Below, piece by piece: positions 27,370 through 32,522 of a stretch of DNA of 64,000 nt; position 1 is the stretch's first letter; the number at the start of each line of letters is the position of its first letter. The DNA is taken from assembly GCF_988242995.1 (NCBI RefSeq), contig NZ_OZ547043.1; one strand, written 5' to 3'. A program made the position numbers and the translations under genes. Below the pieces are notes generated by a model. That model did not search any database. It was not told the origin of the DNA and saw nothing but the letters and a program-made list of their open reading frames with translations.

Positions 27370-28389
27370 TTACCTGAAAGCAACAGTAGCCATAGCTAAC
27401 GTCGTGTCGAGCATTCTGTTAGCAAAGCCCCATTCGTTATCGCACCAGACCAACGTTTTGATCAGGTGTGCGCCACTGACCCGGGTTTGGGTGCCATCGA
27501 CAATGGCACTGTGCGGATCGTGGTTAAAATCTACAGAGACCAACGGCAATTCCGTATAGTCAACTATACCATGAAATGCACCTTGTGCTGCTTTTTGCAG
27601 CAACAGGTTGACTTCATTGGCTTTTACAGGTTTCTTCACCGTCACGCTTAAATCGATTGCCGTCACATTTATGGTTGGCACACGTACCGCAATCGCTTCA
27701 AAGCGATCGTTAAATTGCGGAAAAAATCGTGTGATACCGGCGGCCAGTTTAGTATCGACCGGAATGATCGACTGGCTGGCTGCCCGGGTGCGACGCAGGT
27801 CAGGATGGTATGCATCAATAACCTGTTGATCGTGCATGGCGGAGTGAATTGTGGTCACAGTGCCGGACTCAATACCGTACGCATCATCTAACAATTTGAT
27901 GACGGGAATTATGCAATTCGTGGTACAGGAAGCGTTAGAAACGATGCGGTGTTCCGCACGAAGTTGATCCTGATTGACGCCGTAAACAACGGTCGCGTCG
28001 AGATCGTTACTGCCAGGATGTGAAAAGAGCACTTTTTTGGCCCCGGCGGCAATATGCGCTTCGCCATGCTCGCGGGAGCCATATACGCCGGTGCAGTCGA
28101 GGACTACATCAACGCCAAGTTCACGCCAGGGGAGCGATTGCAGTGAATGTTCATGCAATACACGGATGGCGTCATCACCAACAAAAAGTTGATCGCGTTC
28201 CTGTCGTACTTCCCATGCAAAACGGCCATGGCTGGTGTCATATTTCAACAAATGCGCCATGCCCGCAGCATCCGCCAGTTCGTTGATTGCCACCACGGTA
28301 ATTTCCGCCCGGCGTCTGGATTCATACAAAGCACGAACCACATTACGCCCGATGCGACCGAAGCCATTTATCGCTACGCGTACGGTCAT
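27370..28389 (-). CDS. epd: D-erythrose-4-phosphate dehydrogenase, 339 aa
   Basis: [24 protein letters not shown]...; GAPDH family; the track ORF carries a 28-codon upstream extension. Confidence 0.95.
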
Positions 28390-28511
28390 AGATCTCCTGC
28401 AAGGTTTTCCCTGAGCAAATTTGCCAGACAGAGTAATCCAGCAAATCGTTCGGGGAAACCTTACCTGTCGCAAACTGCGACTGATTGGTTAATTGTCGAA
28501 CATTTAATCGA

Positions 28512-28525
28512 CTGAAACGCTTCAG
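28512..28525. promoter_or_regulatory. Cra(FruR)-like operator half-palindrome in the epd / ECF-operon divergent control region
   Basis: CTGAAACGCTTCAG resembles the TGAAACGTTTCA-type Cra consensus, about 125 bp upstream of the epd start. Confidence 0.3.
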
Positions 28526-28760
28526 CTAGGATAAGCGAAACGTGGAATAAAAGGAATGATTGTCCAGTCAAAGAAGACAATTATCTGACTTACGTCACGT
28601 TTTCAGCCCCGCCCCTGTGGAATTTATTCCACTTTGCAGAATCACGAATAAGCGTAGCAAAATCTTTTCGTTGTGCCGTCACAAACCCTGACTTATATCA
28701 GAATATGACTGATGCAGCGTCGATATTATCCGCAATACGTCCGAGTTTCGGAGTACTCCA

Positions 28761-29192
28761 ATGATGACATTGCCCTACCCATATTCTTCCTCCGCACGTT
28801 TTTACGCGCTGCGCCTGCTCCCCGGGCAGGAAGTTCTCTCCCAATTACGCGCCTTCGCGCAGCAACAACAACTTCACGCCGCGTGGATTGCAGGTTGTAC
28901 CGGCAGTCTGACTGACGTCGCCTTACGCTATGCCGGGCAAGAAAACACTGCCCTGCTAAGCGGTAAGTTCGAAGTCATCGCATTGAACGGCACGCTGGAA
29001 CAGAGTGGTGAACATCTTCATCTCTGCGTTTCCGATCCACACGGCACGATGCTTGGCGGTCATATGATGCCCGGCTGTACCGTGCGGACCACGCTTGAAC
29101 TGGTGATCGGCTGCCTTGAGGAACTGGCGTTTAGCCGCCAGCCTTGCGCGCTTTCTGGTTACGACGAGTTGCATATTTCCCCCGTTAACTAA
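28761..29192 (+). CDS. PPC/DUF296 domain protein, 143 aa, first gene of the ECF operon
   Basis: GGAG 8-11 nt upstream of the ATG; ...HLHLCVSDPHGTMLGGHMMPGCTVRTTLELVI resembles the PPC (PF03479-type) fold. Confidence 0.65.
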   Translation: MMTLPYPYSSSARFYALRLLPGQEVLSQLRAFAQQQQLHAAWIAGCTGSLTDVALRYAGQENTALLSGKFEVIALNGTLEQSGEHLHLCVSDPHGTMLGGHMMPGCTVRTTLELVIGCLEELAFSRQPCALSGYDELHISPVN

Positions 29193-29214
29193 CTATTTTC
29201 AGAGAGGTTTTCTT

Positions 29215-29793
29215 ATGGCGCGTCGCCACTTTTCCAGTCAGGCGCTGGTGTTAATCGTTATATCTATCGCCATCAATATGATCGGCGGGCAACTGGCCAG
29301 CATGGTCAAATTACCTATATTTCTCGACTCCGTCGGCACACTTATTAGCGCGGTACTGCTTGGTCCGGTGATCGGGATGCTGACCGGCTTACTGACCAAT
29401 TTACTCTGGGGATTGCTGACCGACCCGATCGCCGCCGCATTTGCGCCCGTCGCGATGGTCATCGGCCTGGTCACCGGTTGGCTGGCGCGAGCGGGTTGGT
29501 TCCGCACCCTGCCAAAAGTCGTTGTTAGCGGCGTGATTATTACGCTTGCGGTAACGGTCGTCGCTGTACCGCTGCGTACTGCGCTGTTCGGCGGCGTGAC
29601 AGGAAGCGGAGCCGATTTGTTCGTTGCCTGGATGCACTCGATGGGGCAAAACCTGGTGGAGTCGGTGGCGATTACGGTGATAGGCGCGAACCTGGTCGAT
29701 AAAATTCTCACAGCGGTGATTGTCTGGCTTTTACTGCGTCAGCTGCCGATTCGCACCACGCGCCATTTCCCGGCAATGGCTGCCGTGCGCTAA
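29215..29793 (+). CDS. ECF transporter substrate-capture (S) component, 192 aa, substrate unknown
   Basis: AGAGAGG Shine-Dalgarno before the ATG; small polytopic protein with LPIFLDSVGTLISAVLLGPVIGMLTGLL, the loop motif typical of S components. Confidence 0.65.
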   Translation: MARRHFSSQALVLIVISIAINMIGGQLASMVKLPIFLDSVGTLISAVLLGPVIGMLTGLLTNLLWGLLTDPIAAAFAPVAMVIGLVTGWLARAGWFRTLPKVVVSGVIITLAVTVVAVPLRTALFGGVTGSGADLFVAWMHSMGQNLVESVAITVIGANLVDKILTAVIVWLLLRQLPIRTTRHFPAMAAVR

Positions 29794-30501
29794 ATGCATC
29801 CGTTTACATCCTTAACGCTGTGGGCGCTGGCGGCCTGCACCACGCTTATCCTGCCCACACAGACAATATTGCCAGTCTATAGCGCGGCGACCTTTTTCTG
29901 CCTTATTGCGCTAAAGGCCACGCGGCGGCGGGCAAAATATGTCGTCTGGCTGATGTTCTCGCTGGGGGCTGGACTGTGGTTGGTACACGGTGGCTGGCTG
30001 ACAGAATGGCTAAGCGGCACGCCACGCTCGCCAGAACGGTGGACGCATGCTATTACGCTCTGGTTGCGGATTCTGGCGATTGTTTCAACCTCGCAGTTGT
30101 GGATGCAGTACGTCCCAGTGCAACGTTTTATCCGCGCTTTGTTTGCTTCTCACCTGCCGCCGGGCGTCGCTTATCTGTTCGCCGGGCCGTTGTTGGTCGT
30201 TGAGCAGTTAAAACGGCAATTAGCGATTATTCATGAAGCGCAGCGCGCCCGCGGCGTGCCGCTGGATGAGGGCTGGTATCAGCGTTTACGTGCTATGCCC
30301 GCGCTAATTATTCCGCTAACACACAATGCGCTAAACGATCTGGCTATCCGTGGTGCGGCGCTGGATATGCGGGCATTTCGAATCAACAATAGGCGCACTA
30401 CGTTATGGGCACCAGCCGATAGCACCCTACAACGCGTAGCACGTTACACCATGATCTTGCTGATGCTGGCAGAATTCGGAGCGTGGATATGGTTACGTTA
30501 G
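29794..30501 (+). CDS. ECF transporter transmembrane (T) component, EcfT/CbiQ family, 235 aa
   Basis: ATG directly abuts the S-component stop (TAAATG); polytopic; ARG and IRG coupling-helix motifs. Confidence 0.65.
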   Translation: MHPFTSLTLWALAACTTLILPTQTILPVYSAATFFCLIALKATRRRAKYVVWLMFSLGAGLWLVHGGWLTEWLSGTPRSPERWTHAITLWLRILAIVSTSQLWMQYVPVQRFIRALFASHLPPGVAYLFAGPLLVVEQLKRQLAIIHEAQRARGVPLDEGWYQRLRAMPALIIPLTHNALNDLAIRGAALDMRAFRINNRRTTLWAPADSTLQRVARYTMILLMLAEFGAWIWLR

Positions 30502-31166
30502 AACAGTTCCGCTATTGCCCGACACACTCAACGCATCCTCCGTTCTGTTATGACTTTCACTATGTCAAACCGGGGATGGTCGCCATCTTTGGTGACAACG
30601 GCAGTGGCAAAAGTACGCTGGCGCAGCTGATGGCGGGCTGGTATCCGGACTTTCTACCAGGAGAGATAACCGGCACGGGGACGCTTCTCGGTACGCCCAT
30701 TGGGCGTCTCCCGCTTAATGAACAATCCGCCACCATCCAGCTCGTCCAGCAATCGCCCTATTTGCAGCTCTCCGGCTGTACCTTTAGCGTGGAAGAAGAA
30801 GTTGCCTTTGGGCCAGAAAATCTGTGTCTTGCTGAAAAAGAGATTATGGCGCGGATTGACGCCGCCCTGGCCCTGACCGAGTGCCAGCCGTTGCGCCATC
30901 GTCACCCGGCAACACTCTCCGGTGGAGAGACACAGCGCGTGGTCATCGCCTGCGCCATCGCGATGCAGCCAAAACTCTTAATTCTTGATGAAGCCTTTAG
31001 CCGCCTGACGCCGCAGGCCAGCGAAATGCTGTTGCAGCGCTTACAACACTGGGCGTCTGAACGTGGTTCGCTGATTATTCTTTTTGAACGTCATCGCACA
31101 CCTTTCCTGAACTACTGCCAGCAAGCGTGGCTATTGCAAAACGGAGCGCTCCAGCCACTATGTTAA
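30489..31166 (+). CDS. ECF transporter ATPase component A, ABC-type, about 225 aa
   Basis: Walker A GDNGSGKST, signature LSGGE, Walker B LLILDEA; start overlaps the T gene (a GTG at 30483 is an alternative start). Confidence 0.75.
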   Translation: MVTLEQFRYCPTHSTHPPFCYDFHYVKPGMVAIFGDNGSGKSTLAQLMAGWYPDFLPGEITGTGTLLGTPIGRLPLNEQSATIQLVQQSPYLQLSGCTFSVEEEVAFGPENLCLAEKEIMARIDAALALTECQPLRHRHPATLSGGETQRVVIACAIAMQPKLLILDEAFSRLTPQASEMLLQRLQHWASERGSLIILFERHRTPFLNYCQQAWLLQNGALQPLC

Positions 31167-31837
31167 CGTTAAATCAGATAACTTATCGCTGGCCTGGCGC
31201 GGCAACGGATTGTCTTTGCGACATTTCTCTGCAACTCAAACAAGGTGAATGGTTGGCGCTGACCGGCGACAATGGCGCGGGAAAATCGACGCTGTTACGA
31301 GTAATGGCAGGTCTTCTTACGCCCACAACCGGTACGGTTATGCTGCAACAACAGGCGATGAAAAACCTGAAAAACCGCCAACGTGCAGCAAAGATTGGCG
31401 TACTGTTTCAGGAAGCGGAAAACCAGCTTTTTCACAGCACCGTCGCCGACGAGATCGCATTTGGTTTGAAACTGCAAAAATGCCCGGCGGATGAAATCAC
31501 TCAACGTACCAATGCTGCCCTGCAATGCTGTCAGTTAGCAGACACTGCCAGCGCGCATCCGCTGGATCTGCATAGTGCGCAGCGACGGATGGTCGCCGTC
31601 GCCTGCCTGGAAGCACTCTCTCCGCCGCTATTGCTGCTGGACGAGCCGAGTCGGGATTTTGACGAAAATTGGTTGAGCGTGTTTGAACGCTGGCTGGAAA
31701 AGTGCCGCCAGCGAGGCACGAGCGTCGTAGCAATCAGTCATGACGCCGCATTTACCCGGCGTCATTTCTCTCGTGTGGTGCGACTGGAAGATGGTGTAAT
31801 CAGGAACGTTAATCCACCAGACGATATTCACCCGTAG
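31160..31837 (+). CDS. ECF transporter ATPase component A', ABC-type, 225 aa
   Basis: Walker A GDNGAGKST, Walker B LLLLDEP, H-loop SHD, signature degenerate (LHSAQ); ATG overlaps the component A stop (ATGTTAA). Confidence 0.75.
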   Translation: MLTLNQITYRWPGAATDCLCDISLQLKQGEWLALTGDNGAGKSTLLRVMAGLLTPTTGTVMLQQQAMKNLKNRQRAAKIGVLFQEAENQLFHSTVADEIAFGLKLQKCPADEITQRTNAALQCCQLADTASAHPLDLHSAQRRMVAVACLEALSPPLLLLDEPSRDFDENWLSVFERWLEKCRQRGTSVVAISHDAAFTRRHFSRVVRLEDGVIRNVNPPDDIHP

Positions 31838-32522
31838 CGGTCATCATTAAGGTCAAATTTGCAGGCAGACTCTCTTCCAGCACCCGGCGAACATTCGGCC
31901 CGTCGGTACGGTCATAAAAGTCTTCTGCGTCTGCCAGCGATAACCCTCCCGCCAGCTTTCGCCCCACCAGTCGTTCCCGCAACGCAGTAGCTGGCGCGTT
32001 GATAAAGATAGAGAAATCACAAAATTGCGCAAGCTGGCACCACTTCTCGTCGTCCAGCAACAACCAGTTTCCTTCGACGATGACGAGTGGTGCGGTAACG
32101 TGCAGCGCATCTTCAACAGGATCATGCTTTTGTCGATCGTACTGCGGCCACGTACAATCCCCTTCCACGACCTGGCGCAGATTTTCCGCCAGTTTCGCAA
32201 CGTCAAATGTCTCTGGTGCGCCTTTGAAGGGGCGCAATTGATGCGCATCCAGCCAGCTATTGTAATGGTGAAAACCATCCATCGGTAGCGTCTGAATAGC
32301 GGGCAGTTCCGGGTCTTGTTGCGCGATATATTCCCAGAAGGTGGTTAGGGTAGATTTACCCGTCCCCGGCGGAGCGCAAAGAAAAACCACCGTACGCCGC
32401 TGCGGATTTACCGTCTGTAAGGCCGCCAACATGTGCAGCAACGGTTTATGTACATTTTCAATCTCTTCGTTCTGGTACTGTGCCTGTATCTTCAGCCCAT
32501 TCACCGTTAATTCAATTTTCAC
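31809..32522 (-). CDS. yggC: P-loop nucleoside/pantothenate-kinase-like protein YggC, 237 aa
   Basis: Walker A APPGTGKST; matches YggC. Confidence 0.85.
   Translation of the reverse strand: MKIELTVNGLKIQAQYQNEEIENVHKPLLHMLAALQTVNPQRRTVVFLCAPPGTGKSTLTTFWEYIAQQDPELPAIQTLPMDGFHHYNSWLDAHQLRPFKGAPETFDVAKLAENLRQVVEGDCTWPQYDRQKHDPVEDALHVTAPLVIVEGNWLLLDDEKWCQLAQFCDFSIFINAPATALRERLVGRKLAGGLSLADAEDFYDRTDGPNVRRVLEESLPANLTLMMTATGEYRLVD

Follow-up and report, generated by a model that had tools for sequence, protein, structure and literature searches.

O island 119 of Escherichia coli as a probable operon of lmiA and a predicted ECF importer, apparently ancestral in Enterobacteriaceae and lost from the K-12 lineage

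What does a gene for a PPC/DUF296 protein do at the head of a set of transporter genes, and why is the whole set missing from Escherichia coli K-12? The question is raised by a stretch of 64,000 nucleotides (NCBI RefSeq assembly GCF_988242995.1, contig NZ_OZ547043.1; hereafter, the window). Here, the open reading frame (ORF) list and the sequence place five tightly packed plus-strand genes at 28761-31837. They are flanked by two minus-strand genes, epd (27370-28389) and the convergent yggC (31809-32522). The first gene, lmiA (28761-29192), encodes a stand-alone PPC/DUF296 protein of 143 aa. It is followed by genes for the substrate-capture (S) component of an energy-coupling factor (ECF) transporter (29215-29793, 192 aa), the scaffold (T) component (29794-30501, 235 aa), and two ATP-binding cassette (ABC) ATPases of 225 aa each, A (30489-31166, with the PGAP start) and A′ (31160-31837). 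The S stop codon is directly joined to the T start (TAAATG, 29791-29796). T and A overlap by 13 nt if A begins with the ATG at 30489 (the alternative start is a GTG at 30483), A and A′ overlap by 7 nt (ATGTTAA, 31160-31166), and A′ shares its last 29 bp with the 3′ end of yggC. These coordinates agree with the RefSeq/PGAP annotation of E. coli H1827/12, which is 100% identical over 3601 bp and lists the products as a PPC domain-containing DNA-binding protein, an ECF transporter S component, an energy-coupling factor T component, and two ABC ATP-binding proteins.

The region already has a name. It is O island 119 (OI-119) of enterohemorrhagic E. coli (EHEC) O157:H7 (EDL933; Z4267-Z4271, the orthologs of lmiA, S, T, A, and A′ in that order), and its PPC gene is lmiA. 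Liu et al. (mBio 2020, PMC7667037) gave OI-119 a size of 3.12 kb and five genes, z4267-z4271, and papers of 2020 and 2024 presented lmiA as a regulator, activated by PhoP, of LEE (the locus of enterocyte effacement) and of the gad genes (PMC7667037, PMC11657066). LmiA is reported to occupy a 17-bp site in the ler promoter and to activate LEE (PMC7667037); it also directly activates gadA and gadBC and indirectly represses biofilm genes (2024, PMC11657066). Binding of LmiA to the ler, gadA, and gadBC promoters and its PhoP-dependent expression are published for O157:H7 and several strains of EHEC and EPEC (enteropathogenic E. coli) only (PMC7667037, PMC11657066). The window has the same five genes, site, and flanks as O157:H7 but belongs to another lineage, as its 100% match to H1827/12 indicates. 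LmiA is 93% identical to its O157:H7 counterpart, with ten residues that differ, and S, T, A, and A′ are 96.6-97.9% identical. In the 371-bp spacer between epd and lmiA, 368 of 371 positions match O157:H7, and the PhoP footprint, the −35, the −10, and the transcription start are unchanged. LmiA is the least conserved of the five proteins in this comparison, and it also diverges faster than S across genera.

The Salmonella ortholog of the PPC protein, STM3071, has been solved structurally; PDB entries 2HX0 and 2NMU match residues 2-140 at ~1.5e-70. The orthologous STM3071-STM3075 operon was described in a 2024 mBio paper as a putative five-gene ECF operon that is conserved in pathogenic E. coli and anaerobically activated, and Co2+ import was suggested for it, citing a thesis on STM3071 (PMC11481890). 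Our analysis of the S component does not support this proposal. In the OI-119 papers, z4268 and z4269 are called hypothetical proteins; we identify them here as the ECF S and T components. A literature search found no further paper mentioning z4268-z4271, and searches on CD3073, on DUF296 with ECF, and on the PPC domain with ECF returned nothing relevant. The locus is not a discovery: it is named, it has a published virulence role, and PGAP already annotates an ECF transporter. A preliminary description of this DNA, made from the sequence, was aware of no characterized ECF system that starts with a PPC-domain gene; given the published lmiA work and the STM3071 structures, it overstated the novelty. 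Its gene content, packing, and family assignments are borne out by the ORF list, the sequence, and the Pfam/NCBIfam matches, and the regulatory role that it suggested for the PPC protein agrees with the published work on the lmiA regulator. What remains of interest is the cargo, the conserved coupling of PPC and ECF genes, and the corrected evolutionary direction.

We consider it probable that OI-119 is one operon, made up of lmiA and a dedicated, group-I-style ECF importer (S, T, A, and A′), that works as follows. Transcription would run from the epd-lmiA spacer, where PhoP bound at 28589-28607 would activate a start near 28671, as published for O157:H7, whose footprint is identical to the one here. 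An older FNR-type promoter (28688-28701) would supply anaerobic induction. S would take a small organic substrate outside the cell and topple in the membrane against T, and this toppling would be powered by an asymmetric A/A′ pair with one consensus and one degenerate ATP site. Of the cargoes considered, a nucleoside or (modified) nucleobase would be the likeliest, and not cobalt. The original job of LmiA would be tied to the transporter, most simply as a ligand- or metal-responsive regulator, and its control of LEE and gad in EHEC would be a later add-on. The K-12 lineage would have lost this ancestral module through replacement by a short foreign segment.

Does the operon indeed encode an importer? 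S matches PF12822 (E = 5.9e-8), and its best NCBIfam match is the CD3073-family S component NF045596, at 9.5e-40 and 136.1 bits. Since this is less than the 180-bit equivalog cut-off, S is, judged by its score, a relative and not an equivalog of the CD3073 family. An AlphaFold model of S, built on 49 relatives, reached a pLDDT of 94.7. When this model was submitted to Foldseek, the top 17 PDB matches were all S components (FolT, RibU, ThiT, PanT, and BioY), with a probability of 0.94-1.0 and a TM score of 0.5-0.69; the model has the six-helix ECF S fold. The S family profile reaches FolT at 2e-10. T alone matches CbiQ PF02361 at just 6e-5, and the profile of a 15-member T family finds the EcfT chains 5D3M_D, 4HZU_T, and 4HUQ_T at 1e-26 to 4e-25. 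Searches of the PDB with the single S and T sequences gave nothing useful, and family profiles were needed. T carries the coupling-helix arginine motifs AQRARG and IRGAALDMRAF; residues A149, Q150, R153, and G154 are invariant, and the AQxARG motif and the second motif, R-x-F, show little or no variation. These matches confirm that the operon encodes an ECF-type ABC importer, import itself being predicted. Neither outcome that the preliminary description had set against itself was seen: the locus is absent from K-12, and S and T do match ECF models. Among the relatives of S, P0343, P0366, and P0357 include C-terminal fusions to PAS and histidine-kinase modules, and others are S-T fusions of 463-491 aa. 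The former suggest that the S fold has been reused as a membrane sensor domain.

The best NCBIfam matches of A and A′ are the ECF ATPase models TIGR04520 and TIGR04521, below their equivalog cut-offs. In A, the Walker A motif, the signature (LSGGE), and the Walker B motif are canonical, and the switch histidine is replaced (ILFER). In A′, the Walker A motif, the Walker B motif, and the H-loop (ISHD) are canonical, and the signature is degenerate (LHSAQ). This asymmetry is kept in 14 aligned modules, including that of the window; across the 14, the A′ signature is LHSAQ or a variant of it. Because A lacks the switch histidine and the A′ signature is degenerate, the site that combines the Walker motifs of A with the signature of A′ is degenerate and the other site is consensus. 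One of the two composite ATP sites should therefore be non-catalytic. EcfA/A′ pairs are not known to have been described as asymmetric in this way. Among known systems, the dedicated (group I) importers BioMNY and CbiMNQO likewise have S, T, and two ATPases in one operon with overlapping or abutting frames. In contrast to these, a PPC gene leads the operon here, the ATPases are short, and one ATP site is degenerate. Furthermore, S is of the vitamin type (PF12822/FolT-like), unlike BioY or CbiM.

How tight, then, is the tie between the PPC gene and the importer? We scanned a PPC alignment against one genome per species and obtained 74 loci. Of the 63 loci with a PPC protein of 44% identity or more, all but one, on a Fretibacterium contig, have S directly 3′ of the PPC gene (62 loci), and T, A, and A′ come next wherever the contig extends. 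The module order also holds in 27 loci without epd nearby, whose carriers include Proteus, Providencia, Budvicia, Limnobaculum, Buttiauxella, Crenobacter, and Wohlfahrtiimonas, as well as Aminobacter, Mesorhizobium, Kaistia, Paracoccus, and Rhizobium. A metagenomic S homolog with 47% identity is preceded by a PPC gene as well. PPC proteins at 40-47% identity in Variovorax, Pseudorhodoferax, and cyanobacteria come without a transporter. When the neighboring ORFs of 23 loci outside Enterobacteriaceae were clustered, no family other than those of the five genes recurred, except in closely related genome pairs, and the neighbors in Budvicia, Limnobaculum, Providencia, Buttiauxella, and Klebsiella sp. 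are unrelated (purC, tmcA, tehB, an autotransporter, and fbaB). By our own reading of the sequences, a TAXI-type TRAP transporter pair stands near the PPC gene in two distant taxa: 3′ of the PPC-ECF operon in Proteus cibi (L044 12381-15413), and near the PPC gene that has no ECF genes on the Fretibacterium contig (L061 187-3105). Judged by gene order, PPC-S-T-A-A′ is a self-contained module in Alpha-, Beta-, and Gammaproteobacteria. Most carriers of PPC-linked modules are not known as LEE-bearing pathogens. Since the coupling of PPC and S is strict and most hosts are not known to bear LEE, the simplest view ties the PPC protein, in its original role, to the importer. This coupling across Proteobacteria is a concrete handle on the function of bacterial PPC/DUF296 proteins, and it raises the question of whether the DNA-binding role of LmiA is its original one.

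The PPC protein itself matches the Pfam family PCC (PF03479) at E = 2.7e-27 over residues 13-119. His85, His87, and His101 are invariant in 11 PPC orthologs, and so are Glu, Asp, and Cys residues. Vibrio VCA0587 (PDB 2P6Y) is also among its structure matches, and the archaeal PPC proteins PH0802 (2DT4) and AF0104 (2H6L), which have the same Pfam domain, are weak sequence matches. In contrast to the PPC domain of plant AHL proteins, LmiA stands alone, has no AT-hook, and is encoded with a transporter. A match to the tRNA adenosine deaminase 2B3J (E = 0.009) was rejected as chance; reading of the sequences did not align the zinc-ligand positions.

Is the module a newcomer to E. coli? Among complete E. 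coli genomes (n = 5426), 3319 (61%) have the module and 2094 have the K-12 junction, so that two haplotypes account for 5413 of the 5426. K-12 has a 284-bp epd-yggC spacer in place of the module, in line with the short spacer that the preliminary description gave for K-12. At the left boundary, identity to K-12 falls from ~99.5% to ~73% at ~28559, and homology ends at ~28632. The right boundary lies inside yggC: the last 77 codons, in a variable segment that makes up the 3′ third of the gene (31809-32076, minus strand), are ~63% identical to K-12 as protein and ~68% as DNA, the first 160 codons are 98.75% identical, and the rest of the yggC DNA is at 98-100%. The C terminus of window-type YggC is 93.5% identical to that of E. 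albertii and 88% identical to that of E. whittamii; the K-12-type C terminus is 59-66% identical to every species sampled. Thirty-three of the 74 loci, in more than 10 genera of Enterobacteriaceae, have the order pgk-epd-PPC-S-T-A-A′, with yggC-fumE next in 14 loci in all. The genera with the module at epd are Escherichia (E. albertii and E. whittamii), Citrobacter, Klebsiella (the K. oxytoca group), Kluyvera, Leclercia, Silvania, Atlantibacter, Superficieibacter, Trabulsiella, Pseudescherichia, and Enterobacter, and the module has diverged in step with pgk and epd beside it. Two of the genomes carry internal deletions: Escherichia sp. E1V33 keeps the first 27 PPC codons fused to the 3′ end of A′ (L078 8001-8294), and Citrobacter sp. 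Awk 4 retains ~30 PPC codons (L080 8001-8090). These deletions are independent of each other and distinct from the K-12 event.

Because the module occupies the same epd site in 33 loci and the foreign-looking yggC end belongs to the module-less haplotype, we conclude that the module is, by all appearances, ancestral in Enterobacteriaceae and that the K-12 haplotype is derived. From the alignments we also conclude that the K-12 state probably arose by a single ~380-bp replacement (window 28559-32076 versus K-12 L001 4159-4540) that included the last third of yggC. The donor of the K-12 segment would be a relative that had already lost the module. The K-12 left remnant is 86-89% identical to the K. 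oxytoca group and 84% identical to module-bearing E. coli, over only 55-85 bp. The module had been described before as lineage variable. This holds in that it is absent from K-12 and variable within E. coli; the insertion that the wording implied does not fit an ancestral module.

How would the operon be expressed? The published PhoP footprint, CTTACGTCACGTTTTCAGC, is located exactly in the window, at 28589-28607 on the plus strand (PMC7667037). The published lmiA start, a T that lies 90 nt 5′ of the ATG (PMC7667037), maps to ~28671. Its promoter, P1 (28634-28671, plus strand), has the −35 TTGCAG at 28634-28639 and the −10 TAGCAAAAT at 28655-28663, and both elements are conserved in only part of the aligned family. 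A CRP-like palindrome with 2 mismatches, TCTGACTTACGTCACG (28584-28599, plus strand), overlaps the PhoP footprint. Its TCTGA-N6-TCACA core is conserved in 20 Enterobacteriaceae sequences and persists as a mutated remnant in K-12. This core is the first of five conserved blocks in the spacer alignment of these 20 sequences; the others are TTATTCCA (28625-28632) and the FNR-type box, −10, and hairpin described next.

A second, predicted promoter, P2 (28688-28729, plus strand), would have a box of the FNR/CRP type, CTGACTTATATCAG (28688-28701). In the form CCTGAyTTATATCAG (28687-28701), with TGAT-N4-ATCA, the core of FNR sites, this box has its sole match in 64 kb here and none in 100 shuffles. 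Its center is 41.5 nt from a predicted start near 28736, which is class-II geometry, and a −10, TATTAT (family form TATnAT), lies at 28724-28729 on the plus strand. The 5′ untranslated region holds a near-invariant 18-nt element, ACGTCCGAGTTTCGGAGT (28737-28754, plus strand; family form ACGTCCGAGTyTCGGAGT), with a TCCGA/TCGGA stem and the Shine-Dalgarno GGAG in its 3′ arm, 7 nt 5′ of the ATG. In the 20-sequence alignment, the arms of this hairpin, or palindrome, show paired changes in Superficieibacter and Pseudescherichia. The FNR-type box, the −10, and the hairpin are conserved in all 20 aligned Enterobacteriaceae sequences. Since these blocks are so conserved and anaerobic activation is reported in Salmonella (PMC11481890), we infer that P2 is a second, older, FNR-dependent promoter that would provide anaerobic induction. 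A scan of the spacer for canonical sigma-70 promoters gave no match, which fits activator-dependent promoters, and an Rfam search of 28300-32100 found no riboswitch at E up to 1.

What does the transporter carry? We examined the genomic context of eleven relatives of S. The two closest (58% and 47% identity) are PPC linked, and none of the nine relatives at 43% identity or below has a PPC gene. Three of these nine, at ~40% identity, stand immediately after genes for RihA/RihC/UriH-like nucleoside hydrolases, in independent contexts; one comes with three hydrolase paralogs plus a LacI-ribokinase fusion, another with a GntR regulator plus a 5′-nucleotidase. One relative precedes a CD3072-family TudS-related desulfidase, which scores above the cut-off of that model, and the remaining five contexts were uninformative. 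In Paracoccus sp. IB05 (L069 7968-13690), the PPC-S-T-A-A′ module runs on into a gene for a RihA/RihC/UriH-like nucleoside hydrolase, whose start and the A′ stop have 4 nt in common, and then into one for a pyridoxal phosphate (PLP)-dependent aminotransferase. By analogy with these arrangements, the cargo may be a nucleoside or a (modified) nucleobase, with a queuosine precursor as a special case; we hold this tentatively. The likeness to the CD3073/QrtT-like S components of Firmicutes includes not only the best NCBIfam match of S but also the ties of its relatives to nucleoside hydrolases and to the CD3072 TudS-like desulfidase. Unlike those systems, the E. coli operon has no riboswitch or salvage enzyme.

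Two other cargoes have to be weighed. Under older annotations and the STM3071 thesis, the operon would encode an ECF importer for cobalt (or nickel) like CbiMNQO/NikMNQO, and the PPC protein would be its metal-responsive regulator. T and the ATPases do match CbiQ and CbiO models, and the three invariant PPC histidines could be the proposed zinc site. However, the names CbiQ and CbiO, from which the cobalt label comes, are used generically for the T and A subunits of ECF transporters. S has matches to PF12822 and to a FolT-like profile, vitamin-type S components are the only structures that its fold matches, and its relatives are linked to nucleoside enzymes. Furthermore, there is no CbiM/NikM match in Pfam/NCBIfam and no small CbiN-like ORF in the operon. 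A metal importer is therefore very unlikely, and the cobalt transporter label is unsupported, whereas the S relatives point to nucleoside or nucleobase uptake. The other candidate is salvage of queuosine precursors, in which a QrtT-type S with its own energizing module would import preQ1, queuine, or queuosine. The hydrolase-S arrangements of the S relatives resemble QueK-QrtT of Clostridioides difficile. SEED reportedly names the Salmonella Typhi orthologs, STY3230-3233, a "queuosine-regulated ECF transporter". QrtT-type S components belong to PF12822, and the C. difficile queK-qrtT-queL operon, which includes the nucleoside hydrolase QueK, lies behind a preQ1 riboswitch (PMC11130926, PMC11477304). 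Rfam, however, matched no preQ1 or other riboswitch, either at 28300-32100 of the window with E up to 1 or, at gathering scores, in ten PPC-linked loci, and no queuosine genes were found near any PPC-linked module. The hydrolases score best as RihA/RihC/UriH, and three paralogs with a ribokinase suggest general nucleoside use. In addition, E. coli makes queuosine and salvages preQ0/preQ1 via YhhQ (PMC5372724). We regard dedicated queuosine salvage as unlikely, if less so than metal import.

The O-island literature offers a different history, in which pathogenic E. coli received the module by horizontal transfer, as a pathogenicity islet. The module is indeed missing from K-12 and is among the 177 listed O islands, and the authors call horizontal acquisition of lmiA crucial (PMC7667037). 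Against this stand the same site and orientation in 33 loci of more than 10 genera, divergence that tracks pgk and epd, and the presence of the module in 61% of complete E. coli genomes. Moreover, the foreign-looking yggC end belongs to the module-less haplotype, and Escherichia sp. E1V33 and Citrobacter sp. Awk 4 retain remnants left by separate deletions. Absence from the site in sister species and signs of insertion, which mark a genomic island, were not found. An acquired islet is thus extremely improbable, and an ancestral module with a derived K-12 state contradicts the published horizontal acquisition of lmiA. A more serious competitor concerns LmiA itself, which might be a cytoplasmic partner of the importer, such as a zinc-dependent enzyme or carrier for the cargo, with its effects on LEE and gad being indirect or secondary. 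In three proteobacterial classes, the gene order strictly keeps PPC first, ahead of the four transporter genes. LmiA is acidic (pI 5.57, net charge −5); its sequence contains neither RGRP nor GRP, the AT-hook core, nor any recognized DNA-binding motif, and it has the invariant His-x-His...His together with Glu, Asp, and Cys. For the AHL proteins of plants, it is the AT-hook and not the PPC domain that is credited with contacting DNA. DUF296-glutaredoxin fusions occur in bacteria (PMC2679010). The published evidence for DNA binding, on the other hand, consists of gel shifts, competition assays, and ChIP-qPCR in two papers (PMC7667037, PMC11657066), to which PMC7667037 adds a DNase I footprint, abolition by site mutants, and reporter assays at the ler promoter, and the transporter genes are dispensable for the LmiA phenotype. 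These DNA-binding data are direct but come from one laboratory. We rank a regulator with its own transporter operon as ancestral target first and a non-regulatory importer partner, which we think rather doubtful, second.

Several observations weigh against the model set out above for the operon. LmiA is acidic and has no AT-hook, so that its sequence offers no explanation for the DNA binding. A search of the lmiA promoter gave no LmiA operator. The PhoP box fits the PhoP consensus poorly and shares positions with the CRP-like site; the FNR-type box, for which a start is only predicted, is downstream of the start that was published. As for the cargo, just one PPC-linked module, that of Paracoccus, has a hydrolase, and the hydrolase-linked relatives are only ~40% identical, so that their specificity may differ. 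Finally, deletion of z4268-z4271 in EHEC leaves adherence and LEE unaffected (PMC7667037); since this deletion has no such phenotype, LmiA can act without the transporter. It is also conceivable, though we would not bet on it, that the module is an ancient proteobacterial unit in which a PPC trimer works directly with the importer and senses, binds, or processes a nucleoside-type cargo through the His-x-His...His metal site. If so, this would be the first biochemical role for a bacterial PPC/DUF296 protein, and LEE/gad control by LmiA would be a recent exaptation or indirect. The importer would then be dedicated to salvage of modified nucleosides or bases in the anaerobic gut, and this in E. 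coli, where strain K-12 is without ECF core components (PMC5372724).

The spacer holds a few further elements. Its epd-proximal half (28467-28527) is very strongly conserved, K-12 included, and contains a palindrome, GTCGCAAACTGCGAC (28467-28481), and a Cra-type operator, ACTGAAACGCTTCAGCT (28511-28527), which is conserved with its surroundings, also in K-12. By its likeness to the Cra consensus, we take ACTGAAACGCTTCAGCT to be a Cra operator, and we assign the block to the epd promoter. Between these two lies TTAATTGTCGAACATTTAA (28489-28507), which is superficially like the LmiA site of the ler promoter. We rejected autoregulation of LmiA through it: the pattern TTAA-N1-2-GTCG-N5-7-TTAA has one match but was drawn up post hoc, and the element is part of the conserved epd/Cra block, which is found in K-12 too. 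Just 5′ of the published −35 is a perfect 7-2-7 palindrome, GTGGAATTTATTCCAC (28617-28632), whose right half, TTATTCCA (28625-28632), is conserved across genera.

On the other side of the operon, yggC is annotated as a nucleoside/nucleotide kinase family protein, and it adjoins the module in 14 loci. This adjacency may be a coincidence or a functional tie to a nucleoside cargo; K-12 retains yggC without the transporter.

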